A stretch of 55,800 nt of DNA, filler included, from Dugesia japonica (GCA_001938525.1; 5 parts of 5 records of this genome joined end to end with filler, not necessarily neighbours in it), one strand, 5' to 3'. Counted from the first letter of the whole stretch, positions 762 through 43,805 are shown. Made by a program: numbers and translations. Notes: generated by a model not told the origin, from the sequence alone.

Positions 762-800
762 GAATCAACACATTATGAGACTGAAATTTACATAAAGAAA
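165..800 (+). mobile_element. Penelope-like retroelement reverse transcriptase fragment (frameshifted)
   Basis: Translates to YAKYLDSKLKP..VKDSFE..DVSSLFTNV, YKQIDGMAMGS, YKRYVDDVLLIF, NSLHPNIRFTVEEE..LPFLDILI, which are typical PLE RT motifs. Confidence 0.9.
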
Positions 801-911
801 AGTGAGAGTAGAGCATAGTGGAATAAATTAAAATTAAAATATGGAGTAATTTGTAAAATTGTTTTGGAATGGATCACTATAGTATTTTTAAAGTAGTATT
901 TATTTAGTAAA

Positions 912-1316
912 ATGGAACAGAAACAAATAACAATGAGTGGACGACTAACAGTAAATGTGGATCTAGATGACGTCGACAGAGCAATTACAGAGGAACCAGT
1001 ACAAACTCATACCCAACTGCTTAATCAACCTTTAAACCCTTATTTTACAATAAAAAACTTGTGGGATGAACATTGCAGAAACGTAATGAGAAATTCAGAT
1101 GTACTAAACGAACAATTACAACAGACCCAANNNNNNNNNNNNNNNNNNNNNNNNNNNNNNNNNNNNNNTGTGATGCAGATACACCGATTGAATAAAATAG
1201 TGGAGAATCAGAGACGGCAGATTACCGAGAATCAGAATTTTTAACTGCAAACCCTGAGCGGAACTAACAAAATTGTAGAGGATCTGAGACACCAAGTCTC
1301 AAATTCTTCCATTTAA
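912..1316 (+). pseudogene. Short coiled-coil ORF, probably retroelement accessory gene
   Basis: ATG 5 nt after TATTTAG; Q/E/N-rich heptads; reading continues past one stop at about 1242. Confidence 0.4.
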
Positions 1317-2267
1317 TTTGAGTTGGTTTTTCATGTCCTGAGCTATATTATTTTAAATAATTTTCTGTTGTTGTTGGATTGCTTATTTGAGCCTTCGGGC
1401 TTTAATTCTTTAATTATTAATTTCTTTGAGCATTTTATTGTTGATTATTATTTATTTTCCGTTTTTCGCTCTTCTGATATTAATTTTCGTTCAATAATTT
1501 TTTGAATTATTATTCCTTTTCTATCTGTCTCCAGTTATTAGTTATAGTCATTCTTTAACCACGGAATTTATCATTTGAGCATTCTCTTTATTCATCGTCT
1601 TCGTGAGCACTTTTAATGATTCTTTATCTTTCCGAGTTATTATTATACCAAGTGGACAAAATTTATTATTGTTATTACCAAGTTACAAATTCATAGTGCA
1701 GAGCTTATCCTATCTCAAATTAACCGATTACCGAGCGTATCCACAATCCTGAACACTATCGAGACGAGCGAGAGGATGTGGTACGGAGAAAAGAGTAACG
1801 TATGACAACGGATGCCAAGATGTAGAGTATTGTAATGTATGTGTTAAATAGTAACTGTGTTACTATGCAAAAAAAATAAATAATCAAAAACAGTAAAAGT
1901 ATCGTATAAGTAGAGTGGCAATCATATATATTTAATCAGTGCGTAATCAGCATAATCCCGATTTGTATATACAATGTATGAGTATTTTCGAAAAGTGTGA
2001 AGTGTTGATGTGGAGGTGATAATGATGGTGTGTAAATGGCCCAATGAGGAGTGGCATATGGTGTATCTATGAGTGCGATACTCGGTAAAATTGTAAATAA
2101 ACTTAAAGTTCGGATACAGTACAGTAACAGTAGTAAGGAGAACAATATTAATCTAATTTGTAATATCAGTTCAATTAACATTTGATTAACCAGTAAATTC
2201 TATAATCAGTACTCCCAATGTCTTAATGTATAAATATTTCATGTTTACCTGTATTTTAATTAAGAGA

Positions 2268-3167
2268 ATGGCATCCAGATATCAACACCGTATGAATCGG
2301 CAACGAGTTGTGATTAAAAGATATTACGAGAAAAGCAACCGAATCAGCGACGACAACTCCAGTATATATTGGGAATCGAAATCCGATGAGAATAAAACGA
2401 GTGAACAGCTAAGCGGTGGCGAGTCACCGAAATTACAGTCAAAGGTACTTGAATTAGAGAAGCAGGTTGAGAAGTTGGAAGTCAAGTTGAAACAATCACA
2501 ATCCCAACCCCAAAGCCACGAAAAACGATTTTTTGAAATAGAACAATCCCGTGCTCAGTGAAAAAAGACATGTTTGGCCAGAGAAGAGAAAATACATCAA
2601 CTACAAATGGAGTTATCATCCCTGCAAAAAAGACATCTTGATCAAGTTAGAGAGTTAGAAACTGAGATCAAATGGCAGAGTAAAAAGATCAAAATGCTTG
2701 AGAAAACCATAGAGTATAATAATGAAATCAGAAATNNNNNNNNNNNNNNNNNNNNNNNNNNNNNNNNNNNNNNNNNNNNNNNNNNNNNNNNNNNNNNNNN
2801 NNNNNNNNNNNNNNNNNNNNNNNNNNNNNAACAGGATGTGATCGAAATTCAGAATTTAGAAAATGCCGTAAAGCATCTACACGATGAGAATGTGCTTCTA
2901 AAAGAAATTCCCATCCGAGTGGTAATTCCACCACGTCAAAGTAAACCAATAAACCGCGAGCAGACGTTTTATACCTACAAAACCAATGGGCGACTTGTAG
3001 CCCCACAAATTAGTTTACTCGATCAGCGAGCCATTCAGAACAGACAAACCCAACCATCCCATTCCGAATCCAGCAGGTCAAATACGTTCTACCCCACGAC
3101 TTCAGAAAATGCACAAACGCAATGGCCATATTCAGCGTCCGAAGAGGATCTGTTCTGGAGTCGATAA
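2268..3167 (+). pseudogene. About 300-codon SMC-like coiled-coil ORF with one internal stop
   Basis: ORFs 2226-2561 and 2574-3167 are in the same frame, separated by a single TGA; long heptad region; ATG just after TTTTAATTAAG. Confidence 0.5.
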
Positions 3168-3743
3168 ATCTTTCGTGTCGAGCAGTTCTATGTTGCGTGT
3201 AAACTATGTAAATATTTATCGTAATGTGTGAAACTATTCATATTTGTGTCTCTGACAATTCCATACCAAAATGTCCTCTGACAGTTCAATACTGTCTGTT
3301 GGGTCGTCTTGAGTGTATTCTGCAGTTCTATGCTGCCAATCTCTCCTGAGCTATGCTGCTATCTCCAAGTCAAAGGTGTTCTCCAAATTCATTCTGTCCA
3401 TCAAGAGAAGATTCAAACTCTTGAACTTTATGATTGTATTGTGATCCAAGTGTGAGATAAATTCGACATTGTTTAATTATAATGCAGGGATCCAGGTATT
3501 AAAATGACAATTATGATGTAGATAAAGAACATAGAATTGATTCAGTGATTTAAATTGATTTTTTTTAAAAATCTGCATGTGTATTTCTTATATTTGATTA
3601 AAATAATATATTTTCAATTTTGTTATTTTTCTTCTTATTTCTTATCTGTATGTATTTTTTGACAAATTAGATTCTTGCTTGAGGGATCTTTTGACCAGTG
3701 TAAGTGACAACCGAGCTTCCCTAAAATCAAGGGTGCGAAATAA

Positions 3744-3839
3744 AGTAGATAGGAGTTAGAAGAGTAGGTGAAGAAATTGTTACAGAAGGAATTTTGAGAG
3801 AAATTCCGGGGCGGAACTTTTTCGAGGCCCCCAGTATTT
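3744..3839 (+). mobile_element. Probable Polinton terminus (AGTAG start) interrupted by element A
   Basis: AGTAGATAGGAG...AGTAGGTGAAG resembles the terminus at 18103 (AGTAGATAGATAGGAG...AGTAGGTCAAAG). Confidence 0.4.
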
Positions 3840-5214
3840 TGTTGAGCTGGAACACCAACATTAGACGAGGAACTAAAGAAATAAAGAAGGGTGAAAATAT
3901 ATAAGATAAAGAAGGATATGCACCAAAATCGATGATCTGGACCAAAATATTATTAAGAAAAGCATTATTATTATTATTATGGTTATTATTATTATGTAGT
4001 TATCATTATTATAATTATCATGGTGCGTTTTAAAAATTATCGAAAAAATGAAAATTAGGCGTAGGGGACCCAAATTTAGTGGGACGAAACTGAAAGTTAT
4101 ATGTAACAAAAGGCAATTATAGAATAAATAATAAAAATAATATACGCTAATATAATAAATTATTAAAGAGGCCTCTGTGACCCAATTTCATTATTATAAT
4201 AACGCTGTATCGCGTTTAATATTAATAATTATTATAATTACGACTGGTCCAATCATCACTGTCCTTGTCTAGCTGATAAAATAACACGAAAATAATCAGC
4301 AGTTTAGCTGACTCATTCCCTGCTAGATAAGGACTTGGCCTAACAACTAACCAATTCGTCACATAGGTCATATGAGGTGATGACCAAGATTTGTCAGAAT
4401 GCAAAAGTATGAGTTCGTGTGCAGAGGTACTGAGATATGCACACTGAATTCGAGCCTACAACAGCCAATCAGGAGAACAAACATCAGCATCGCATTGGCC
4501 GGTCAATTGAGGGCACAACAATCGCTTGTTGTTACAATGAATAAAAAGAGATGAAGAGAAAAATGATGGCCATTAATTCAAAACAAAAAATTTTTTTTAA
4601 AATAAATTAAAATTGATCTTAGCGACCATTTATAACGAAATAAAAGAAATTTTTAAAGAAAAAATTATCAAACTNNNNNNNNNAACTACCGATTAGAAGC
4701 GAAAAGAAGATAATTGCGGATAAACTTACCAGGAGAAGATAATCATAATTCAGAGTAAAATTTAATTTTATTTTTATTTGCAGTGATAATTATTATCCTG
4801 GGGGAGTGCCATTCACAGTGATTGTTTTCCAATTAGTGATCGGGCTCCTACTAAAAGCAAATATGTTATGTGGGTTAGGTTAAATTCGGGAATGAGGTTG
4901 CAGATGAGGAAGGAGATGAGATTTAATTTATGCCAACGTTAGAGAGCAATATCCAGAGTAAAAATAGGAGTTGTGAGGTCGATAGATGAGAGAAGAGTAA
5001 TTGAAAAAAAGGAAAATTCTGTTAGGATTTGGAAAGAAAATATTGCTGAGCCCGATCAGTCAGAGGAGGACGATCATTAATGCCCCATAGGGATGACTTT
5101 CGAATTTTTGTTTGTTACGATTGGTAGTCGGATTATTAGGCATGTTGTACAGGTTCCAATTTAATTTTAATTTGTTTTATTGTTTTAATTAAAAGTTTTA
5201 CGTTGAATAAACAC

Positions 5215-5495
5215 TTGATAATTTTGATTTTTATTATGTTATCAGTAATATTATTATTATTAATAGGAAATTTAAGATTCGAATTTTAAATAATGCAGTG
5301 CCTAATTTCAGTTATTTTATAGAAGTGTTTAGATTGACTATTTGATAATTTTGATTATTTTTTATGTTATCGTTAATATTACTATTATCCATAGGAGATT
5401 TAAGATTCGATTATTAACATTATTATTGCTGATATGAGATTTAGTATTCGATTTTAAATAATGCACTGCCTAATCTAAATTATTTTATGGAATTG
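5215..5495. repeat. Imperfect tandem duplication (about 125-150 bp, 2 copies)
   Basis: TTGATAATTTTGATT...TTTAAGATTCGA...TTTTAAATAATGCA.TGCCTAAT occurs twice. Confidence 0.75.
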
Positions 5496-5972
5496 ACTGT
5501 AGTTGATCACTAGCCAAATGTTCACTTCAAATTATGCATAAACAAGGCATAGTTTCGATCATTTTCTTAAGCCGATGTTATTCGACCATCCATGTAATGT
5601 TAGCTGTAAATGAAAGAATTTACTCGGATTATTACCTCCACGTTTTTAGTATTAATATTGGTATTACTGAGCAGTTCCGGGAAGTATGACATAAATCAGA
5701 GTAAATCAACGGGATGTCCAACGATGAGATCGAAGTTGTTTTTGCCCTAGACTGATAGGGAATTTCGTCATAGAGCTTGACCATGGCGAGAACGAGAAAA
5801 GATGTTTGCGATGAGGGAACATCTTTTCTGGTTCACGTCATGAAGCGGTGGAAAAGTTATAATAGGCCACAGGCCGAAGAAACGTTTTATTAATTCAAAT
5901 TTTGCCTTGTTACTTATAAATCTTATTTAATGTTGTAATGAAAATAGTTGATAAATTTATTTACCAGAAATA

Positions 5973-6403
5973 ATGACCGAATATTACCAGCCACATATCC
6001 CATTGGTACTCACCAATGATGCAGAGGAAGGAACGTTCTGGTTCCCTGGAGGAATACCGTAGAACTATTGGAGGAGCAGCGTGGTAAATATGAGAAAGAA
6101 AAGGCGGAGACGCTCGGCAAAGGAGGGCAGTTGGTAGCCTAATTCCGAGTGATCAAGCAGCGGCTGATTGACACCCAAAGTTCTCTTCAACGATGCCAGC
6201 AGGAGAACCAACAACTTCGCCAGGAAATGCAGTTGATCCAGGAAGGGGTAGAAAAATTAATTTAGTGCCACACCGAGAGTGGTGCACTATTGGGACACAT
6301 CAAAGATAAGCTCCTATTGAAGAACCCCGAGGGTGTTGCAAGGAGTTCCAACTCCCCAATTCCTCTCATTGTAAAAGTGGAGTCGTTGGCAAGGATTGAA
6401 TAA
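5973..6403 (+). pseudogene. Cassette ORF (coiled coil) in element A
   Basis: Acceptor TTTATTTACCAG (5967), ATG at 5973, degenerate frame ..IKQRLIDTQSSLQRCQQENQQLRQEMQLIQEGVEKL..; stop overlaps AATAAA at 6402. Confidence 0.55.
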
Positions 6404-6715
6404 TAAATGTTTACCTGTGACCGAATTGTGTTTTATTTGTTTCATTTTAAGCGATTAAACTCCAGTGATATGTACGTCACTTGTTTACTAAATAAATTGA
6501 GTCTATCGAGGTAGCAAGGAGTGGAATAGGTACTATCTAGCCACTAGTTTTGAATAAGACCTTGGTCACTGTGGAAAATTTATTCAGTGGGGTAAATCAA
6601 CATATAGCTTAGTTTTCTTTATAAATTGTACTAATTTACATCGCATTGCTTATATCTCATATTGTCCTTATGATTAATAACATGAATGTCAAATGAATAA
6701 TATCTAACATTTCAG

Positions 6716-7038
6716 TGAACAATTCAAACGACACCAAGGTACCACGAGGTAATGGAATCGACGCGCCGCACCGGTGGAAAGAGGAACGGCGATAACTAAA
6801 AAATGAGATTCTGCGGCTGAAAGGACAGGTCCAGAAGTCGGCGGCCAAGTACAACCAAATCAAAGAGAAGGAGCTATCCCTTCAACTCGCCAACAGGTTA
6901 ATGGCTGATGTCATTAAGACATACGCCGATAGAGAGAGTTCGATGTTTGTGACCTTGCGAACTCTCTGGTTGAACTATCGAGCGCCCGATCAAACGAACG
7001 ATCCGCCAGAACCAACAGTGGATTTGGACGCTGATTGA
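6716..7038 (+). pseudogene. Cassette ORF of the DRE/YADRESS coiled-coil family
   Basis: CTAAC branch point plus ATTTCAG acceptor (6715); frame ..LQLANRLMADVIKTYADRESSMFVTLRTLW.. with one internal stop; AATAAA at 7056; homologs at 27871 (minus) and 37011. Confidence 0.7.
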
Positions 7039-8286
7039 GGAGCTTGTATGTATAAAATAAATGTTATAAATTGTGACTGAAGCGTTATTATTTCTTGTTA
7101 CGAATTATTGGGAGGATAAAGTTTCTAAGAAGTGGAGCGGTGGTAATCCGACCTTTTCTTACTGAGTACGTGAGAGTTTTGTTGTCAGGGTTCACGGATC
7201 GATGAATAAGACGCGATATCGCAAAGTCGCGCTGGACCCGAGGAAAGAGAGGGGCACATCACAGAGGTGATGCAAACGCTTGTGGTTTTTATGTTGCCCC
7301 TAGATCAGATGACAAATTCTTAAAATGATTGAGAATGAAGAGAAATTTTTTTTTTTGTTAAAAATAAAAATCCTAAAAACCCAACAGTATATTAGATTTT
7401 AGACTAGAGACTTTTCTATTCGCATTCTGAACCAAAAGCTTTATATTAGTTTTATACTAATTAATATTAAAAAAAATTACTATCAATATAAATAAATTAA
7501 ATTTTTATGAAATATTGTAGAACACAGAAACAAGTTGTATTAAAGATTTTGTAAAAAAAATCTATTTTGAAAAGTTATATTGAAATCAAAATAATTGCAA
7601 AAAATTTTAAACAATAAAATTGATGAAAATAATTTTAATTTGGAAAATATATCTACTTGGTGTTTTTATTATAAAATTATCTTACAAGAAAAACATGTTT
7701 CAAATTAATAGTTAATAGTATTTGGACGATTTTCTAACATTCATTATATTAACAACTATAATAGTAATAATAATATTAATAATAATTTATATTATTTTGC
7801 ATTTTTTCATCAAAAATAAATAAAAAGGTAAAAGCGATAATTAAAATCATAAATGACAGTGTGATGTAATCAAATTGTGTAATTATTATGATAACTGAAA
7901 ACTGTAAACGAAATTCAACGCCACATGTTGAAAGAACAAAGATGCAACATGATAAATTATTGAGGTCGATATCAATTTTTGATTTTTGGCATAATTTTTT
8001 GTCAAGAAATAATCTTATTTAATAGGTTGTGAATATTAAATGAAACATGTTAATTTGATTTGTTAAATTTATTGGTTAATTGTTTATGATTTTATTTAGA
8101 TTTATAATTTTTTATAAATATTTCTTTATCGGTTATCATTTAAATAATAAAAATTACCTTTAATTAGATATTCCGATTCTCTAAAATCCATAGTTAAATT
8201 ATTAGTAAAAAATGAAATTTCGTTAAATTAAATTTGATTTTTAATTGAATATTTAAACAAACTAAAAATTGAATGTATTTTAAAAT

Positions 8287-8773: not shown

Positions 8774-9534
8774 AATTAATCAAAGGTTAAATCGAAAACA
8801 GATATTTATAAACATTAACAAATGATTGGTCAATTTTAAAAGTTGATATTTAGTTGCAAAATTTAGAAGCATCGAATAATCACTAAAGGTGGGCAGACGG
8901 GGGGTAACCGTTTCCATGGCAACCGTATCAAACCTAGGTTTGTACAGCACAATATAAGTATGCGAAATATTTGGATTCTAAATTGAAACCATTAGGAATT
9001 CTAATTTTGAATGTAAGGACAGTTTTGAGTTGGTAAATTTTATCTCAAATTCTGTTTTAAGTAATAATGATGAGTTTGTGGTATCTTGATGTTTCTAGCT
9101 TATTCACTAATGTTACTTTTTGCTGGAAATAATAGATCTTTTTTGTGATTTATTGGAGAATAATTTGAGTGATCATTCTGAATTGAATATAGCTGCCTTT
9201 CGTGAATTGTTGACTTATGCAATGGCTAATGTTTCGTTTCTGTTTAACAATGAATGGTATAAACAGATTGATGGAATGGCTATGGGTTCTGACTTTGGCT
9301 CCGACATTAGCATCAATTTTCTTGAAATAGCTTGTAGAACGAATGAACTGGTATTCTTTGAGTAAGCCTCTTACTTACAAAAGATATGTTGACGATGTTT
9401 TACTTATTTTTGGTAATCGTAAACATATTTTGCCTTTCCAGAGTTGTATGAATTCGTTACATCCCAATATTAGATTTACTGTAGAGGAGGAAAGAAATGA
9501 TATTTTGCCTTTTTTGGATATTTTAATAGAAAGG
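8774..9534 (+). mobile_element. Second copy of the X-box segment plus Penelope RT fragment, truncated by contig end
   Basis: Duplicate of 1-761. Confidence 0.9.
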
Positions 9535-9634
9535 NNNNNNNNNNNNNNNNNNNNNNNNNNNNNNNNNNNNNNNNNNNNTTAATTAATTAANNNNNNNNNN
9601 NNNNNNNNNNNNNNNNNNNNNNNNNNNNNNNNNN
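9535..9634. other. Artificial contig linker (N-TTAATTAATTAA-N)
   Basis: Six-frame stop linker flanked by N runs; the same construct occurs near 18370, 31985 and 43750. Confidence 0.95.
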
Positions 9635-10327
9635 TTTAGAAAAACAAGTATTAAATCATCAAAACCATGGTCTCTATGTGGTCCTTTGCAACTAGATTTC
9701 ATGGATCATCCAAAGTATCTTTTTCCAGGTGTTAATCCTCCGATTCGATTAAAAAGAGCAAACCCCAGAATGTGTTTAGAATCTCAAATTGATGAACCAA
9801 AACATTAATTATTGGATGCAAAACTAATGGGAAGAAGAGCTCGAGTAAATTCATCAGTACTAACAGATCATTAAATTGGATTAACAAAACAAAATGCTAT
9901 TTATCCAATAAAAACCAAGGAAATTGTATCATTTTCATCATTTTATAAGGAGCAAATCTATGGAGATCATCGATTGCCAAACTTTATTCTAGTTTCATTT
10001 CAAGATGGCGAACGATATAAAGGAAGCTATAAAATACGAAGCTCACTTTTCGATAATTTCAATGTTACATCATTAACTCTATCAAGTAACGGCGAGTACA
10101 GAGTGACTTACACACAAGACTTTAAAAATGATGATAATAGTACATCAAATATGCAATCAATAGTTAGAAATTTGGGATATCTTAACAAGAATATGAATTG
10201 TGGAATAACAATTGAAGATTTTAAAACCAAATATTCATTTTTAACTTTTGTGCTAGCTCCAGATTTTGATATTAATCAGAGTCAATTACCGATGCTGGGA
10301 AATATTAAGCTAGATGTAAAATTTGAA
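9635..10327 (+). mobile_element. Polinton/adintovirus major capsid (hexon-like double jelly-roll) gene, degenerate C-terminal half
   Basis: SKPWSLCGPLQLDFMDHPKYLFPGV..IRLKR; YKGSYK...FDNFNVTSLTLSSNG; CGITIEDF..YSFLTFVLAPD..GNIKLDVKF. Confidence 0.8.
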
Positions 10328-11572
10328 ATCAAAGTGGTCAAGTCGAGGGAGTCGGCAACGGTTAATTCGGATCGACTACTGAGATGGATCGACGGTGAAC
10401 ATCAGTAATTAAAATGAAGTCGAGTAAATCATGACAGGGATTGTGCAAGGTCAAAGAAATTGAAATTGACTTGTGTTTTTCGTGGCGTGAAAAACATTGA
10501 GTAAACGTCAGAGAAAAGTCGAGTGAAATGTGGGGAGAGATTCAGAAAGTCAGGGTAAAATAAAACTGATTTTTGTTTTACTTTCCATCAACTAAAAGAG
10601 ATAATTTCAAATGAGGGTAGAAGTTCGGATAGTCAGAGAAACAACAAACTGATACTCGAATTTCTGTTCTTGTGAAATAACGAGTAATTATCAAGGAGAT
10701 AAATGAGATGAGATTGAATGAGTCGGTTGGAAGCAATTAGAAAATAAAGAAAATAACAAATTGATTTTGAATTGCTTTAGACAGTAGTATCAACATCAAA
10801 GGATCGGTGATATAAATCGAATTACAGGTAATTTTAATATTGACAAAGAAATAGATGTGACAAACTCTGAGATACTAAGAAACATGATGAAATCAAAGAA
10901 AAAATAGTGTTATGCAAGAAATCAAAGCAAAAGTCAATGATAATAAAATGATAATGAATGCGGAATTCAGATAAAATGCTCAGCAAAGNAANGTGGGAAA
11001 GGAATAAANTTAAATTTGTAAAATTAAAGGTGTGCATAACGAATTAAGAGAGTAAAGTAACATTAATAAATCGGATAATTGTGCAGTGTGTAAAAATGAG
11101 ACTTAAATATGTGTATATGTTAGTTACAAATAGAAGTATAATAAAGTAAACGATAACAAGTGTTAGTAAATTGATAAAGTGTGTAATGAGAACTAATGAA
11201 GTGTGTATTGAGAGTTAACTAAGTATGTGTTATGAACTAACAAAGTATGTATTGTGAAGTAATAGAGTATATTGTGTGTGTAATAAATAGTGTGAGTATG
11301 AATTAAAAAGCTAATGCAAATTACTAATAAATGCATAATAAAGTGATATAATTGGAGTGTATCATATTTTTCTTTCAAATTATTCATAAAATCAAACGAT
11401 CAAGAACTCAATCAGATAATTCACCATTGATATTTCAACTGACAGATACAATCTACAAAATACGACAAAGGATCAGAAATATTATTCGAGTAAAAAATCA
11501 CATCCATCCAAGACACAGAGATCAGCATCGCTCAATCCTCAAAGCAAAACCCCATACGATAAATCAATCTTA

Positions 11573-31750: not shown

Positions 31751-32040
31751 CCCACTGAATGTTACTCAATAGAATATATATAATCAGTTACTCAAACATT
31801 TTTATTGGTTTTATTAATTTCTTCAACAACTTTTTCATGCATTTTCATCCTGCTTTTCATTTCTTAAAACGTCTTCAATTCTTGTTTCTTAATATCTATT
31901 TTCATTTCTTTGTCATCGAGAGCAATGAACAATAGAACTTNNNNNNNNNNNNNNNNNNNNNNNNNNNNNNNNNNNNNNNNNNNNTTAATTAATTAANNNN
32001 NNNNNNNNNNNNNNNNNNNNNNNNNNNNNNNNNNNNNNNN

Positions 32041-32274: not shown

Positions 32275-34130
32275 ATCATGTTTAACAACGAAAGTAATTT
32301 GTGATAAGTAATTGCACAAATGTCATCAGATCTTGAAATGAGATTTTTCAAGATTTAACATGCGAGAGATAATTTTACCAGATACTTTGGTAGAAAAACA
32401 TTTTAAAATAATTGGAGAAATTAAGAATGCAAAAATTTTAGTTTGGAATTCATGTTGAGTTCAAAAGAGATCATGAAATAAAAATTTGCCATTTATCTAC
32501 TTAGTGAAAGGTTTTTTGAAGAGGGAATTAGAGTATTAAATGAGAAGATTGTTGAAAGAAGCGAATTAGAAAGTAGCTGTACTTTTAGTAGGATATTAGA
32601 AATAAATTTCAACTTGACTAAAATAAGCAAAATAAGTTATATTCCAAAGTTAGAAAATCTTGTAATGAAACAAGCAATTGTTAATGTTAAAAACAGTGAT
32701 AATAAATGCTTCATATATAGTATTCTCGCAATTCTTAAACGAGATTTAATAGACAAAAAGCAAAGGAATCGGGTAGCACAATATAACGAGTTTATGTCAG
32801 ATTTTGTATTTGATGAAAATGATATGCCCTTGAAATTTGTGAATATTCCCAAATTTAAAAAAAAACACTGGATTAGCTATTAATGTTCTATCATGGAATC
32901 AGAACTTAAATGAAAATGATGAAGACGAGGTTGTCATGAAACATGCAAACTTAGATATAATTCACAAATCAAAAGTCGAGGGTAGTAAGAAAATTAATTT
33001 ATTATTATTTGAAGAGTGAGATCAATTTCATTACACTGCTGTGGTAAATTTGAATAGATTGATGAACAGAGATATTAATAAGAATGGTGTTCAAATTCAA
33101 TCAATCTGGTGCAAAAATTGCCTTAATGAATTCTGGGATAAAACATCTTTCAAGACTCTTGAACAAATTTTGTGAGAAGATACAAACGGGAACCACTCTT
33201 TCTAAAATGCCCACAGAAAAAGAATTAATATTTACAGATTATTCAAAAACTATGACTCCTTCGTATGTTATTTATGCTGATTTCAAATCAGTGCTAGAGA
33301 AGGATCCCGAACATTACCAAAAACATCTGCCTATATCAGCAAGACTTTGATTAGTAAATAATTTCACTAACGAATATCAATACCATCAATTTATAGGATC
33401 AGACTGTGTTTACAATTTCTTGACAATAATTGAAGAAATTACCTAGAGCATTATATACTTGTTGGGGTGAAACACCCGGTTTTAGAAGAAAATCAAGACC
33501 AGGGGCTCCAAATAAGAAAATAATAAAGTAAAGGACCAAAATAAAATTAATTAAGACTAATCACCACATGGTTAAAACTTGCAAGTATTACAATTAATAA
33601 AATCGGAAGAAAAGGCAAAAGGAATAAATAGAATATCGGATAGATGGAATATCATCTTTAATCAATGATATTAATTAAAAGAAAAATAATTTATTATAAA
33701 ATAAACAAAGAAATTATTATTGAAAATAATGGTTAATTATCAGGAAAATATTAATTAATTTTAGACAAAAAAGATTTAAAATTAGACAAAAATCTGTTTT
33801 TCAAAGATATCTCCGCTCAGAAAAATCACAGAGACTTTTAGTAAGAAAAACTGGATAGAGAAGGCAACTGGTCAATAGAATTTTGTAACAGGAAAGTTCT
33901 ACCATCACCAGGAGAGTTTTGGGAAGGATTTAAAAAATGGACCAATGAGGGGCCAGAAATGAAACATAAAACAAAGCCCTGAAAAACACAATGTGTCCTA
34001 AAAATAGGCACCAATAATATAGCAGAAAAGTTTCAAAACTTTTAGAATTTTTGACAAAACCCCAATCAGTAACAAGAAACAGAAAAAATAGAAGGTCAAT
34101 GAAAAGTGTGCCGAGTTGTATCCAGAAAGG

Positions 34131-34170
34131 TATATAAACCCTGCGAAATTTAGAAGAAATTCATTCATTT
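34131..34170 (+). promoter_or_regulatory. TATA box plus initiator of element B
   Basis: TATATAAA at 34131, TCATTC 30 nt downstream, three CCAAT boxes upstream (about 33942, 34011, 34062), GTGAGT donor at 34448. Confidence 0.55.
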
Positions 34171-36191
34171 TTACTAATTGTTGTACGTAATACCGTATTG
34201 TACTATTGTAATTACTAGCGTTAGAAAATTTATTCAAGGAGAATCTCGTTAATCAATTTTTCTTAACCCACATTGTAATACCACGATTTCTACTAAATTA
34301 ATTTATCAGTGTCTTTACTGAATTTCTAGAGGAGAAATATTTCATTAGTTAAGAAAGGAAATTTGTGGCAGAAATCAACAGCTATTTTCAACTGAAATCG
34401 ACTCCTGTTTGAAGATTAAACCGTTGCAGAATAAATTGTGCTTATAAGTGAGTAAGAATTTTAATGTTAATCGTATAAAATATTTAATGGAAATTGTAAT
34501 GATATTTTAATAAACAATTAATCCATAAATTTATTTTTGTTTAGAAAAGAATTTTAAGTTGAGTTTATATTGTTACTAATGCCATATACATTCCCACATT
34601 TCGCTAGTAAATAATGAAAAATTTCGTAACTCTACTCATGAGGTATGCAGAAGTCGACAGCTGATAGCCGTTATCTCACGCTGTGCATAACAATACATTA
34701 TGTCTGAATCAAAACTCCCTCTGTATTAGTTTTATTTTTTAGCATCTGCCACAGGCGATCAATTAATTACTGACATAAATTGTCAGGCCAAGTATGGAAC
34801 ACACCAACTTGACCACAAAGCACTAAAATTACACTTCACACTGCAAACTCACCATAAGGATGACACACCCACTCGTTTCAGGCAAATAAATGACACACAA
34901 TACAACCTTATTACTACCATGAACAAGATAAATTTTTTGCCTGATTATTGCCGACACTAAACAACAATGAAAAAAAACTACTACAGAGAGGGTATGGATT
35001 TTATTTTCATGTCAAGATCTTGAATCATTGGAGATTAAGTTCATTACAGCGACCTAATTCGAATTGTTAGAGTATCGCATGGTGGTGTATTATTATCTTA
35101 TCTGGTGGTTGGAACTAACATAGAACAAGTTATCCTGTTAATAACCGCTCAATGACTGATAGACTTATCGTGATTTAATCTTAACGCAGCGGTTAAGACT
35201 TCCAGAATAACTATTATAGTTAATATTATACGGAGAAAATTATGATAAATAAATTATTAATATTATTAAGGATATTCGTTATTATTATTATCAGCATTAC
35301 TATTATAGTTGATTATTATTATTAGATTTAAGAGTATTATTACTATCTCTAGTATTATGATGGTCAATATTATTGCTAGTATTATTATCGCTATTCCTAC
35401 TGATATTATTATTATTATTAGCTCTACTGTTACTATTAGTATTATTAGTTCCACCAACATTATTAATATTATTAATTATATTATTAATTTTGTTATTATT
35501 CTTATTATTAATCCACCACCATCAGTTTTATTATCACCATCATCATTAGTAACTTTAGATGAGTGAATAGTAATATTATTATAACTATGGTTAGGTTAAT
35601 ATTCCTCAACTTAGTTGCCTCTAAAATAACAGCCAAGATAAGCATTTTCTCATTCTTTCTTATTATTAGGGGTCGAGTAGTTGAATCCTGTTGGTTTTTC
35701 CTTTAAGCTAATGGTGGAAAATTTTATCGCTAATTTTTGAATAAACCCAATCTAATAATAACCCATGAGTGTGGCTTTATCACCAAATGGGAAGCTACTA
35801 TCTTCTTCTAATATTCGCTATAGCAATTTTAATAAAGGATTTCACAATGACGTCAAATCGGGTGGGATTCATGCATTAACTTTATTTAGATCATGCCGAC
35901 AGAACTAAGAATGGCCTTACGTACTATTTCGAAGCAACCCAAAACAGCGCGGCTTAAGCAACTTATCGGGCATTAATTATTTCCGCACATAGTAGAGCAT
36001 CCTGGCGAAACGGACCTACAGTGTTTCGCCGAGATGTTCCCGTTAGTACATCAAGTGGATATTGACGCGGATTCTTGATGGTCATGACGTCGTTCAGTGT
36101 GTTGCATTTAATAAACCTTTATATTAATCTTGTTCTTAATCAACTGCTGAATATTTACTATTGATGTTAACTGTTGTTACTTTTAGCTACA

Positions 36192-36595
36192 ATGAAATTC
36201 AAATCGGAGATATTGCTTGACCGACGAACCGGTAGTACCATCTTTAATAGATATAAGAACCCATATAATAGAAATGTTGGCGTTCAAATTGGACTCCTGG
36301 TGTAGTAGAGGAGAAAAGAAATTGGGACGCCACTGAGCGTCAAGCTTTCTATCAGTGGACAGGTCCCAACCGATTGCGCGTAGTATACCATGCGGTCCCA
36401 ACTTCACAGGTAGGCGCCAATGGAGAGCCACAGATAATCAGAGAATGGTATGAGGGTCCTTCTGTGGTCGACGTTACTACGGAGCACTTCCCCCCATTCT
36501 CGTACTTAAGTGCTTTCGTTCAAAACAATCTGTGGGGTATAAGAAATACTGAAGAAGGTGATAATAACGAATCTGCCAATAATGGTTTTGCTTGA
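36192..36595 (+). pseudogene. Cassette ORF in element B (unknown product)
   Basis: Acceptor TTACTTTTAG (36186), ATG at 36192, frameshifted, AATAAA at 36627. Confidence 0.5.
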
Positions 36596-36793
36596 ATAGT
36601 TGACTTGGCGACTTGTTGTAATTAGCAATAAAATTATCCTGGTTATAACTTGTGGTTAAATGGCGTCTATTTATCATCTTGCTTTGTTTTTCAACATCAT
36701 AACGATATAAAAAAATCTTTTAAATAATAAANNNNNNNNNNNNNNNNNNNNNNNNNNNNNNNNNNNNNNNNNNNNNNNNNNNNNNNNNNNNNN

Positions 36794-37112
36794 TACTAAA
36801 AAAAGTAAGAGAATCGAGCAGAGACCAGGAGATGACCTGGGATTTATATCGTCTCACGGAACGACAATGGGAGACCGATACCGCCACGGCTGAACGCAAG
36901 GTGCAAAGAAATAAAACTAAGTTTAGAAAAAAGCAGAGGCCTTTCATGCCCAAGAAAGACTCTGGAAAGGTCAAATCGAGTCATTTTCAGAGATCATCCG
37001 GTCTCTCCATGACCGTGAAAATAAACTGGTATCCGATATTTTGACCTTAAAATAGGCCATACCTCTCGAGTCATTGATGATCGATAAGGGCACGCAAACT
37101 TCACGACCCTGA
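36794..37112 (+). pseudogene. Cassette ORF of the DRE family in element B
   Basis: After a frameshift in the A run at about 36930: ..FSEIIRSLHDRENKLVSDILTL..; AATAAA at 37138. Confidence 0.6.
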
Positions 37113-37259
37113 TCTGTTATGAGTTTTTAGTTTTAAAAATAAATGACTTTTTGATTTATATTTATCTTGCTTTCCAGTCGTTTATGTTGATTTCGAGAGT
37201 TTTTCTTTTATTTAAATATTAATAGTGATCGGACCATCTTCTAATTTTAATTTTTTTAG

Positions 37260-37620
37260 TGCCACGAATCCAGCTACCCACCAGTTTACGTAGGTGTCAT
37301 CGTCTGGTTTAAAAGTTGCTTCTAGAACGCCACATTAAGGGCAGAACGAAAGATCGTTACTGCGACACTTGACCCAGAGAAATTGCCTTATTAATAAACT
37401 TGACTTAATCGTCAAAAAGCAGAGTGAAATAGCCAAGCAGACCAAACAACTATTCACGCATAGAATCGAATTCTTAGAACAATATATTGCGGATTTGGCT
37501 AACCGGCTAGAACAAGAGACGTGGACTAACTGGAATAGCGAAGATGATGAAGCCGCTTTTGGCTTCTCATCTGAAGAGCCTACCCATTGGTTAAACCCGG
37601 GTACTCTCAATTTCATGTGA
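37260..37620 (+). pseudogene. Last cassette ORF in element B (coiled coil plus acidic/aromatic tail)
   Basis: CTAAT plus TTTTTTTAG acceptor (37259); stop at 37620; AATAAA at 37630. Confidence 0.5.
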
Positions 37621-40164
37621 TTAATTAGTAATAAATCTTTGTATAGATTCATATTCATTTAATTTACAAACAACTATAAAGAGAAAATAGTGAATCCAAA
37701 ACAAAGGTATACGGTTTATACCCCAAATGAATGTTGGGTGTCAACCACGCTATACCGAAAATCTAATCAGGACATTAGATAAATTCTTGAAGGGGTCCCC
37801 TAAGGGCTGATTTTTCCCCAGCCGCCATTTTTTCTAACACCAACTCNNNNNNNNNNNNNNNNNNNTTACTATCAAGAAAATAGCAAAGAAAAGATGAAAA
37901 TAACAACAGAAGAAGATATTAAATTCAAAAAAACAACTATTTGTCATTTATGTAAGAAAAACATCATTAAATCGGTTCGATACCACGATCATTTCACTGA
38001 GAAATACATGGATGCCGCATGTTCAACTTATAATCTCAGTAGCAAAGTTCGACATGAATTACCTATAGTATTTCATAATCGTAGAGATTATGATTTGCGC
38101 CATATATTAAAGTATGAACTCAGTCAATTTTCTCACTGGAATATCTCATTTTTACCAACAACAAGCGTGAAATCTTCATGTTTGATTGTACACTTGAATA
38201 AAGTAACTATAAAGTTTATTAGTTCTTGTCAGTTTATCAATAGCTCATTGGACGCGGCTGTTAAAACAAATAAAACAACTCCATTAACCAGAGTTTAATG
38301 ATAACAGAATTATCAAATCAAAGGAAATTTTCCCATATGACCTCGCTACAAGCCTGGCCGTGTTGAAAGAAACCGAATGTATGCCACCAATATGGAAATA
38401 TGTCAATGAAGATTCGTATCAGAAGGCTCTGGGAATGTGGAATATTACTGGATGCAAGAATTTACTGGACTACATGATAATTTATCTAAAACTGCTAGAT
38501 AAATTATCATGTATTCCTGCTAGCTGACTTTTTTCAAGAATTTCGAGAGAAGTCTCTAGTACATAACGAATTGGAACCATTATGATTCTTTTGAATTCCA
38601 GGGATGAGCTNGGCATCAGCATTTATGACCCTAAAGGATCCTATTGAATTGCTTACAGACAATAATATGTTCTCATTTTTCGAGGGAGGCATCAGAGGTA
38701 GACTGTGTGGTTCAATGTGAAATCGAACGAAAACATTGATCTTTTGTTCATCGATATAAATAACTTATACGGATGGACATTAAGTCAGAAATTATCATAT
38801 ATGGATTTTCAATGGATTCATACCAGATTAGAGCAAATATTGGACGATTGTATCGTATGGCTACACAGTAGAATTTGACATGGAAATCTCGGACGAGTTA
38901 CATGGTTATTTAAGTGATTTGTCTGTTGGACCCAAACATCAGAGCCCACCAGGGAGTAAGATAAAGAAGCTGTTATTAACACACTATACGAAATTGAACT
39001 ATGTAGTACATTGACAATTACTACAACTGAACATGCAACTTGGTGTTAGGATTTTTAAAATACATAGAGCTCTGATGTTTACACATTATATTTTCAAGAA
39101 GTATATAGACGAAAATACTGAGCTAAGATCTCAGAGTACATCGGATTTGGATAAGAATTATTATAAGCTTTTGAACAATAGCCTCTACGAAAAACATTAG
39201 AAAATCTAAAGAAACTAATGAATCTCAGANTGTGCAATTCAGCTAAGAAGCTTATTACTAACGTTTTAAAGCCAAGCTTTAGGAAAACAATCAAAATAGA
39301 TCAAACTTTAATTGCGGTATTGATAGACAAGGATACAGTTTGTCTCAATCGCCCTTGCTTTATATTGGTCAGACAGTATTGGACTTGAGTAAGCTAAGAA
39401 TGTATCAGGTCTAATACATAGAGCTGGAGAAATATCGGAAAGAGAGAAAATGTACTATTAATATAGTGGTGGGAGATACTGACAGCTTTTTCCTGGAAGT
39501 GAAAGACATTAAATTGGAAAGATTACTAGAACTGATGGTTCAGGATGAGTTGATGAACACTGCAAACTATAATGCATAAGATTAGATTTATAAAAAGTGG
39601 AATTCAGTGGTAGGAAAATTCAAAGACGAAAGCAAGGGTACGAGATACAAGGAATTCATTTTTCTGAGATCAAAATGTTACAGTCTGCTTAGCGAAAAGA
39701 CCAGCATGAAGGCTAATGGAGTAACATTAAAAGATACCGACTTAATACTACAGTCGTATCTAGATTTTTACAACAACAATCAAGCGGTCTCAGTAAACCA
39801 ATTTAGGAAACCAATAGGTACAAGAAACCACCAATTGTACAGCTTTAAATGACCAAAAATAGCATTGACCAATACTGACGATAAGAGAGTATGGACACAC
39901 AAAAACACCAGTGTTCCATATGTGCAAATGTAGTTTGACCGCAAAAAATAAGACTTTGGATCAACAAAAGAATGTACAGGTAATAAATTTATTTGAACTT
40001 ATTAGAGATTTATTTTATTATTTAGTAATCAAAGGAAGAATCAAGTCACATGAAGAAACTTATGAAACTCATTGTATTTGAACTGTTTATTTTGAACTGA
40101 CTTTGTCCAACTGTTTGTAATTTATGTAATAAAGTTTGCCATTATGATTTATGTTTTTTTTATG

Positions 40165-40686
40165 TATTGTTAATATTGCCGGGGAGCATCTAATGTTAAT
40201 ATTTATATTGCGCGAAGGATATTAATGTTAATATTAATATTAACTAGGGAGCAACTAGTTTTAATGTTAATATTACTCAAGGAGAACTTAATAATACTAT
40301 TGCCCAAAGCGTCTAATGTGGCTTGGAAAGAAATTTGATTAACTACCTACAAATTTAAAATTTTTCTTTAATTTAAAAAAAAGTTAATTTCCATTGATTA
40401 CGCATTGGTTACGTATATTTCAAATTACACCATAAAAATAAACATAATTGAAATAGTAAAACAAAAATGAATTATAATTTTAAAAAAAATTAAACTTTCC
40501 GCCAAATATTTTCCGCGAAAAATAAATCCAAATAAATTCATAAAAAAATTGAACTAAACACAAAATATACTAGCAAAAATTACGTAATCAAATCGTTCCC
40601 ATTAAATATACGTAAAATTTATACACCACTAAAAATGTTCTATCCCATGGGGGGGTATAGTGGCCATGCCCTAGTTTTTATCTACT
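40165..40686 (-). mobile_element. Polinton terminal inverted repeat region downstream of pPolB
   Basis: Ends TATCTACT; TAATATTGCC/CTAGGGAGCAACTA subrepeats resemble the reverse complement of 45690-45770. Confidence 0.65.
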
Positions 40687-41341
40687 TGATAACATGGGTT
40701 TCAGCCTTACATAACTATATATTAACAATAACAACCACCCCAAAAAATTATAATGTCTGTGATAAATGGCTATTCTAGTGACCGGTTAACAAATAGTAAA
40801 TAATGGGGATATACTTAGTTATAAGTTCACTATTCGTTAAGACCTTACAAGGAAGACAGAATCGTTGAATGAATCCATAATAATCAATGAAAGAAATATC
40901 GATGATAAATGTTATAATATTTGAGATCATAAGTGACAGTCATGGTAATAAGAAGATAACTGAGGGCACATATGCATTAAGGGCTACTAAGACAAGTACA
41001 TAGTGTATTTCTAAGGATAAAAATAACTAAAGGTACAGCATCATAGTGAGAATAACGATGAGAGGAATTTTAGTTTTACTATTACAAGTAGTTATTGGAT
41101 AAAAATTATTAGACAAACCTAAAACAACAATGCACTAACAACTATTTAGTTATGTATCAGGGCAGAGAAAAAAACCCAACTAAAAGAAAAAGGACCTGAA
41201 TTCAAACTGCAAGTTGTGAGTAAACGATACTATTCCGAAGATCTAGCATAGGGATGCTAGATTAAATTTTTATCGAGGTTCTAATAAAGACCACAAACCC
41301 GGTTATCAAATAAAACATCCGGCCAAGGTGAAGCCCCAACA
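40687..41341 (+). mobile_element. Element D: 3' end of a related LTR-like element
   Basis: Ends GCCCCAACA (inverse of TGTTGGGG); CTATTCCGAAGATCTAGCAT..ATGCTAGATTAAATT is homologous to 37750-37787. Confidence 0.55.
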
Positions 41342-41387
41342 ATATTACTCCACAAAAAATACAAATAAAGATTTAACATCAATTAAA

Positions 41388-43705: not shown

Positions 43706-43805
43706 NNNNNNNNNNNNNNNNNNNNNNNNNNNNNNNNNNNNNNNNNNNNTTAATTAATTAANNNNNNNNNNNNNNNNNNNNNNNNNNNNNNNNNNNNNNN
43801 NNNNN

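Follow-up and report, generated by a model that had tools for sequence, protein, structure and literature searches.

Does the segment at 33460-37865 of the window (the whole 55.8-kb stretch of DNA analyzed here) hold a genuine multi-gene transcription unit, and, if so, what kind of element carries it and is it in use? The original prediction read the segment as virus-like, with one promoter and leader followed by serial cassettes, each comprising a splice acceptor, an open reading frame (ORF), and a polyadenylation (polyA) signal. We conclude that the unit is real and well-formed but dead. The window itself is gappy eukaryotic DNA of ~30% GC, crowded with decayed mobile elements. It contains an SNF2-family gene (PF00176) and a fragment of eIF3a, for which the best solved-structure matches are animal-type entries. 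Judging from the repeats, the source animal may plausibly be a planarian.

A discrete insertion in a DNA polymerase gene

The segment, hereafter element B, interrupts a polB gene at 33459/37866. The main landmarks are as follows:

32300..39937 (limits approximate), + strand: insertion host, a decayed protein-primed-type DNA polymerase B gene (putatively Polinton/Maverick-type; PF03175)
33460..37865, + strand: element B, a discrete 4.4-kb insertion, likely a solo LTR (empty-site contigs, DNA run X1)
33460..33467, + strand: 5' end of element B, TGTTGGGG, with a TGTNR pattern (sequence)
37700..37846, + strand: conserved 3' terminal segment, homologous to a neighbor at 41180-41345 (local score 49)

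The downstream flank of the host gene matches PF03175 (E 1.9e-6), and the gene is probably Polinton-type, a label taken from that protein family. Introns of the host DNA in the window are AT-rich and end in a T-tract and AG. Nine polB contigs (5 joint rows, DNA run X1) join 33427-33458 directly to 37866-37870. Since these contigs skip 33460-37865, the segment is an insertion into the polB gene that is missing from other polB copies; the contigs represent those other copies and do not establish the same allele as the window. They fix the 5' boundary of element B within 2 nt and hold two letters between 33458 and 37866. Look-alike 4-mers in the flanks were rejected as the target site duplication (TSD) of 4-6 bp expected for a gypsy-type LTR because the empty-site contigs keep both sides.

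Element B begins with TGTTGGGG and follows TGTNR, the terminal pattern described both for gypsy LTRs and for Ginger transposons (PMC2836005). Its last 19 nt (37847-37865) form an N gap, within which lie the 3' terminus and any TSD. The similarity of 37700-37846 to the neighbor was reached by none of 100 best-of-window shuffles and none of 2,000 pair shuffles. This homologous neighbor terminates in CCCCAACA ~20 nt past the last read base of element B, and TGTTGGGG at the start of element B is the reverse complement of CCCCAACA. Judging from the matching distance of the neighbor, the 3' end of element B would be CA, hidden in the gap, and the CCCCAACA end of the neighbor points to LTR-type ends for element B as well. 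A pair of short LTRs at the ends of the element was rejected; the direct similarity of the ends scores 22, a value that 3% of windows attain. The longest stop-free frame in element B is 107 aa, and no primer-binding site (PBS), polypurine tract (PPT), second LTR, or attached gag-pol was seen for it.

A predicted promoter, ATG-free leader, and serial cassettes

The following features make up the predicted unit:

33942..34066, + strand: three CCAAT boxes (33942, 34011, and 34062) in an A-rich upstream region (motif search; not scored against chance)
34131..34166, + strand: TATATAAA at 34131 and Inr-like TCATTC at 34161, 30 nt apart (motif search)
34161..34447, + strand: 287-nt ATG-free exon, predicted to be a non-coding leader (ATG count)
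34448..34453, + strand: predicted splice donor GTGAGT, the only GTRAGT on the + strand of element B
34544..35253, + strand: possible further cassette(s), weak; acceptor-like AG at 34544 and 34742, broken frame from 34730, AATAAA at 35248
35870..36115, + strand: cassette 1; acceptor 35889, ATG 35893, one internal stop, stop 36078, AATAAA 36110
36165..36632, + strand: cassette 2; acceptor 36186, ATG 36192, stop 36595, AATAAA 36627
36794..37143, + strand: cassette 3; start lost in an N gap, stop 37112, AATAAA 37138
37240..37635, + strand: cassette 4; acceptor 37259, stop 37620, AATAAA 37630

The CCAAT boxes, TATATAAA, the Inr, the GTGAGT donor, and the acceptors, ATGs, stops, and AATAAA signals listed in the original prediction all lie exactly where it had placed them. 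The promoter side is the strongest part of the layout. A scan of both strands of the 55.8-kb window for TATAWAWR plus TCAKTY at 27-33 nt returned the pair of element B and no other. The leader has no ATG against 4-5 expected (P 0.004-0.006; 14/1,877 windows), and the ATG-free stretch (34100-34463) ends just past the donor, with the first ATG 16 nt into the predicted intron. An AATAAA is also present inside the predicted leader, at 34430, and a further one is found at 35831. These two, the AATAAA at 35248, and the acceptor-like sites at 34544 and 34742 had escaped the original prediction.

Downstream, each of four GC-rich blocks (GC 0.43-0.46, versus 0.22-0.30 in spacers) is followed by an AATAAA and a T-rich spacer. 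The spacers between cassettes are 108-147 nt long, stop-to-AATAAA distances are 32, 32, 26, and 10 nt for cassettes 1-4, and AATAAA-to-next-acceptor distances are 58, 76, and 121 nt. All four ORFs are broken, which bears out the expectation of stops and frameshifts. Besides the internal stop in cassette 1, a frame change is needed in cassette 2 between the ATG frame and the open frame at 36272-36595, cassette 3 needs a frame change and has one stop inside, and cassette 4 contains two stops and lacks an ATG close to its acceptor, with a coiled-coil-like open frame at 37339-37620. An ATG follows within 3-5 nt at 2 of 5 acceptor-like sites in element B and at 3 of 5 such sites in element A, another element of the window described below, the sites being hand-picked. 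Formation of a start codon across the splice junction was considered and rejected, as three acceptors are followed by TG and, by our own reading of the frames, a long frame results in one of the three only.

Taken as a whole, the sequence layout of element B exceeds chance, although its components differ in this respect. The region 35860-37735 contains eight AATAAA, compared with 1.9-2.7 in local block shuffles, and none of 1,000 shuffles reaches eight. The same region holds three polyA-then-acceptor pairs versus 0.2-0.3 in shuffles (p 0.003-0.007), under pair criteria that were set after viewing and with very AT-rich windows elsewhere reaching 3-4 pairs. Neither the acceptor count of the cassette region (p about 0.3) nor the AG-exclusion zones before acceptors (p 0.11) were above chance. 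The enrichment over shuffled controls that had been proposed as a check is thus seen for AATAAA and, with post hoc criteria, for the pairs, but not for acceptors or AG-free zones. Element B carries 19 AATAAA on its + strand in total, and hence the four assigned to the cassettes were selected from a larger set.

The position of AATAAA relative to base composition provides a further comparison. GC-to-AT drops coincide with AATAAA at 3 of 3 sites in element B, 7 of 10 in element A, and 10 of 44 elsewhere (p 0.0006 for the two elements together and 0.007 for element A alone), in a scan that missed the cassette 2 drop. The - strand of the window is at background level (8/30). Element A (~762-7386) is a second element with the same grammar on the + strand. 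No BLAST similarity in DNA was detected between the two elements, and a protein similarity was rejected (best E 0.38); element A therefore represents a semi-independent repeat of the grammar. It ends CCCAACA at 7386, and the alignment of this end with that of element B is not significant.

Copies and coding content

DNA run X1 contains the window's own copy of element B, as indicated by near-identical pieces (0-4 differences) at 34254-34427, 34448-34655, 34839-35045, 36090-36440, and 36828-37019. Depth over the element was strongly uneven; these values are summed contig depths at 85% likeness, are inflated in A-rich bins, and do not represent copy number. Summed depth was 1,300-5,800 over the first 620 nt, 28-73 over 34242-35183, 5,687 at the end (3' half) of cassette 1, which is common to many contigs, 42-113 over cassette 2 and the adjoining bins, 14,376 in bin 36911-37067 of cassette 3 (the highest outside microsatellites), and 300-2,000 over cassette 4 and the 3' end. 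This patchiness suggests modules common to many diverged relatives, not one uniform family. Searches of viral contigs and protein searches with cassettes 3 and 4 found no related loci, and the 5' end motif had no match in viral contigs.

No protein homolog was found for cassette 2, or for cassette 3 when read through its stops, in the collections searched. These protein collections, including those used for cassette 4 and element A, may be poor in sequences from the animal. Cassette 4 had no homolog among 1.84 billion proteins; Atlas matches to it (0.92, phage hypothetical proteins) were set aside as weak, with a recognition score of 2,281, under 2,300. Pfam and PHROG searches of the element B frames returned sub-threshold coiled-coil-type matches only, the frames of 34544..35253 had no Pfam or PHROG match, and the element A ORF had no protein match at longer lengths either. 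A single-sequence fold of cassette 2 was uninformative (pLDDT 46.6), and searches for Rfam families and tRNAs each returned 0. Among 11 listed inter-copy differences inside ORF frames, two are synonymous (40 of 574 differences were visible), which gives no apparent sign of purifying selection.

Expression of the window's copy

Three RNA runs carrying the same species label, of 1,592, 1,888, and 1,749 million letters (5.2 G in total), placed 28, 320, and 75 reads on element B, respectively. Of these 423 reads, 418 fit partly only and two were ≥99% alike to the element. No RNA read was present in the 15 joint rows listed of a total of 44, and no clustered RNA starts or ends occurred on element B in the three runs. 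Depth was 0 over 34242-34398 and 36126-36910, the leader attracted almost no reads, and depth in the donor bin (≤0.23) and acceptor bins (0-0.36) was so low that there is no room for a hidden three-read joint. Two signals were rejected: depth at 35184-35654 reflects cross-matching of an ATT microsatellite, and poly(A) loose ends at 33677/33713 lie in an A-rich tract with A runs on both sides.

The RNA check therefore yielded neither a leader or spliced leader (SL) junction nor polyA-end evidence for the window's copy, which is silent or absent from the sampled animals. In the 3' half of the leader, the likeness of most relatives falls below 85%, and the RNA result concerns this copy and not the family. 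LTR elements are described as de-repressed when the piRNA pathway is knocked down (PMC8532177). Of the original claim of one promoter and leader serving serial cassettes, the grammar stands and recurs in element A, while the three RNA runs gave no evidence of its use by the copy at hand.

Nature of the element and processing of its RNA

For a single multi-kilobase unit that has a TG end and a predicted CA end but lacks an enzyme, a solo LTR is the simplest explanation. The reading that we prefer, and hold tentatively at close to an even chance, treats element B as the dead solo LTR of a giant retroelement of gypsy type (Burro-like). On this reading, its intact ancestor would have produced several small accessory proteins by joining a single AUG-free leader, through cis-splicing, to one or another last exon. 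The AUG-free leader and the donor are both present, so what cis-splicing requires is in place. In the intact ancestor, Pol II would have initiated near 34161, and the leader would have been spliced from the 34448 donor to one of several acceptors. If acceptor choice was coupled to the next AATAAA, each mRNA would have combined the leader with a single ORF, following the pattern of the adenovirus major late unit, while unspliced genomic RNA presumably read through the internal polyA sites. Element B would itself derive from a master element bearing gag-pol. Because genomic RNA must pass several polyA signals, polyA use coupled to splicing would be needed. Four to six such signals inside an LTR would be a burden for genomic RNA and count as a cost of the LTR reading, and the uneven DNA depth is evidence against it, as a uniform LTR family should show an even profile. 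A wider proposal is possible but rather doubtful: giant planarian-type retroelements may carry an adenovirus-like accessory operon inside the LTR, with the leader alternatively spliced to at least four last exons that each carry a single ORF and a separate polyA site, and with cassettes swapped between LTR families, such that every solo LTR would be a self-contained multi-gene unit scattered through the genome.

Other explanations differ in how the RNA was processed or in what carries the cassettes. The leader donor might have served the first acceptor only, with later cassettes cut at their polyA sites and capped by SL trans-splicing, as in an operon. Flatworm operons have intercistronic distances of ≤300 bp (median 99 bp in S. 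mansoni), and cis- and trans-splicing are described as often using the same acceptors (PMC12582326). The AATAAA-to-acceptor distances fit this spacing, and element B resembles such operons in its co-oriented short genes <300 nt apart, T-rich spacers, and acceptors near ATGs. However, the flatworm SL ends in AUG (PMC12582326), yet two of five acceptor-ATG distances in elements A and B are in frame, which is the chance level and provides no phase bias. SL-like loose ends were absent among those listed, where acceptor reads were too few to form one, and element B differs from the operons described in being a mobile element with a cis leader and donor, in a host that is only putatively a flatworm. 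We consider the SL route unlikely. Alternatively, the cassette unit may be real and its carrier something other than an LTR, such as a non-autonomous, integrase-mobilized (Ginger-like) DNA element, a Polinton-associated module, or an internally deleted element. Ginger termini also follow TGTNR, with element sizes of 2.6-7 kb (PMC2836005); moreover, the DNA depth of element B is high towards the two ends and drops in between, and the element sits inside a Polinton-type gene. Nonetheless, element B has no 40-270 bp terminal inverted repeat (TIR) of the kind described for Ginger (compared in inverted orientation, the ends score at most 21, a value attained by 4% of 5,560 random windows, with the last 19 nt unread), and no transposase, including gypsy-integrase-like ones, was matched by Pfam in the frames scanned, although non-autonomous copies would still be possible. 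The nine polB contigs without element B show that it is not a standing Polinton gene, and a non-LTR carrier seems to us decidedly improbable.

It may also be asked whether a shared-leader panel exists at all, given that AT-rich spacers can mimic polyA and acceptor signals. Element B could then be a mosaic put together from decayed fragments, or a single gene with several exons. Introns in the window are themselves AT-rich with T-tracts and AG ends, element B is rich in AATAAA (19), and homologs, RNA, and an excess of synonymous differences are all absent in the searches made. The patchy copy depth, too, suggests modules of mixed origin. Against both of these readings, the blocks end without a GTRAG-type donor. 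They would also have to accommodate the unique TATA and Inr pair and the ATG-free leader, both independent of the cassette pattern, as well as an AATAAA enrichment at GC drops that repeats on the + strand of element A with the - strand at background. We judge that a mosaic or single gene with fortuitous signals has a small probability.

Relation to known systems

Returning to the solo LTR, Burro elements are natural candidates for the family of element B. Burro/GYPSM1 are giant gypsy-like LTR retrotransposons of Dugesiidae, described with internal regions of up to 25 kb and total lengths of >30 kb, and with an env-like region as well as accessory ORFs (PMC6431247); this size and these accessory ORFs lead us to expect multi-kilobase LTRs. 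Shared features are the implied multi-kilobase LTRs, a TGTNR end, the presence of accessory ORFs, and the decay of copies through stops and frameshifts, and a gag with three CCHC knuckles occurs elsewhere in the window. Likened by description and not by sequence, the two differ in that the accessory ORFs of Burro are placed in the internal region or polyprotein, whereas the small ORFs of element B lie inside a putative LTR, each with a polyA signal.

The adenovirus tripartite leader is reported to lack AUGs and to be joined to numerous mRNA bodies, which fall into five polyA families (PMC7851563). Element B, as read from its sequence, resembles this major late unit in its one promoter, AUG-free common leader, alternative 3' splice sites, and several polyA sites. 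It differs in size (4 kb versus 28 kb), in having one ORF per polyA site and not a family, and in lacking adenovirus proteins and inverted terminal repeats (ITRs), so the likeness is an analogy only. The "virus-like" label fits best in the sense of an LTR-retroelement or provirus remnant, and not in the sense of an adenovirus relative. Complex retroviruses provide a parallel for coding sequence inside an LTR, as in HIV nef, MMTV sag, and foamy virus bel, which are spliced accessory genes or ORFs in U3. They too use a common 5' donor for several accessory ORFs, but have a single polyA site in the 3' LTR, whereas element B has one per cassette and at least four between its TG and predicted CA.

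The accessory ORFs of giant LTR elements are already known, as is the splicing of one leader to many ORFs in viruses. We found no account in the literature surveyed of an LTR that contains several cassettes, each with a single ORF and a single polyA site, and the original Burro account may cover such a layout. Solo LTRs are normally regarded as promoter relics, and the decayed, silent copy in the window, taken alone, is a well-formed fossil. If solo LTRs did hold working multi-ORF units, each copy could yield several small proteins that are missing from annotations, and do so without gag-pol; the element would have to solve the read-through of several internal polyA sites by its genomic RNA. 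Such units would also provide a well-defined case, in a mobile element, for testing cis against SL processing.

Recurrence of the cassette grammar in the window

The grammar of element B (33460-37865, plus strand), in which GC-rich blocks with broken ORFs carry acceptor-like sites and AATAAA signals and are separated by T-rich spacers, recurs in element A, the second element of the window (762-7386), and the two have no BLAST similarity to each other. The broken ORFs of element A are coiled-coil-like, and neither a 5' end nor a donor was located within 762-7386. Its features are as follows:

907, 2264, 4783, 5967 and 6715, acceptor-like sites
5206, 6402 and 7056, AATAAA signals
7386, CCCAACA, the end of the element

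Element A is flanked on each side by one copy of an exact 761-nt duplicate (1-761 and 8774-9534), a broken reverse-transcriptase fragment that, by its motifs, we take to be Penelope-like. The duplicate adjoins a scaffold gap and may be an assembly artefact. A third element is represented by its 3' end (41180-41341), which is homologous to the end of element B and terminates in CCCCAACA; the rest of this element, toward the 5' side, could not be located.

Details within element B

35266-35600, minus strand, Asn-rich, triplet-periodic stretch
37083-37100, KGTQT late in cassette 3
37823-37832, YY1-like CGCCATTTT close to the 3' end

The minus-strand stretch, which gave no Pfam match in the one frame scanned, could represent either an antisense ORF that has been broken or an AAT microsatellite that has decayed. 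An AATAAA lies 18 nt 5' of the predicted donor (34430-34453), an arrangement that recalls the competition between polyadenylation and donor use in retroviral leaders; this signal, at 34430, could mark the end of R. The KGTQT fits the dynein-LC8-binding motif KxTQT.

Gaps and neighbouring sequences

9535-9634, 18326-18425, 31941-32040 and 43706-43805, 100-nt gaps
9875-10408, 177-aa frame
16480-17010, repeated TTTCCCGCCAAA-like motifs accompanied by CCAAT, on the downstream side of the gag-like element
40490-40530, the same, downstream of the decayed DNA polymerase B gene

All four gaps contain an identical TTAATTAATTAA spacer. Being scaffolding marks, they do not guarantee that the sequences on their two sides are contiguous; none of the four lies within element B. 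The 177-aa frame, which to our eye resembles a Polinton capsid fragment, had no Pfam match, and its sole PHROG match was weak (tail-fibre). At 11420-15830, a broken gag with three CCHC knuckles precedes roughly 3 kb of unassigned, decayed coding sequence, an arrangement as in Burro polyproteins. The TTTCCCGCCAAA-like motifs are E2F-like.
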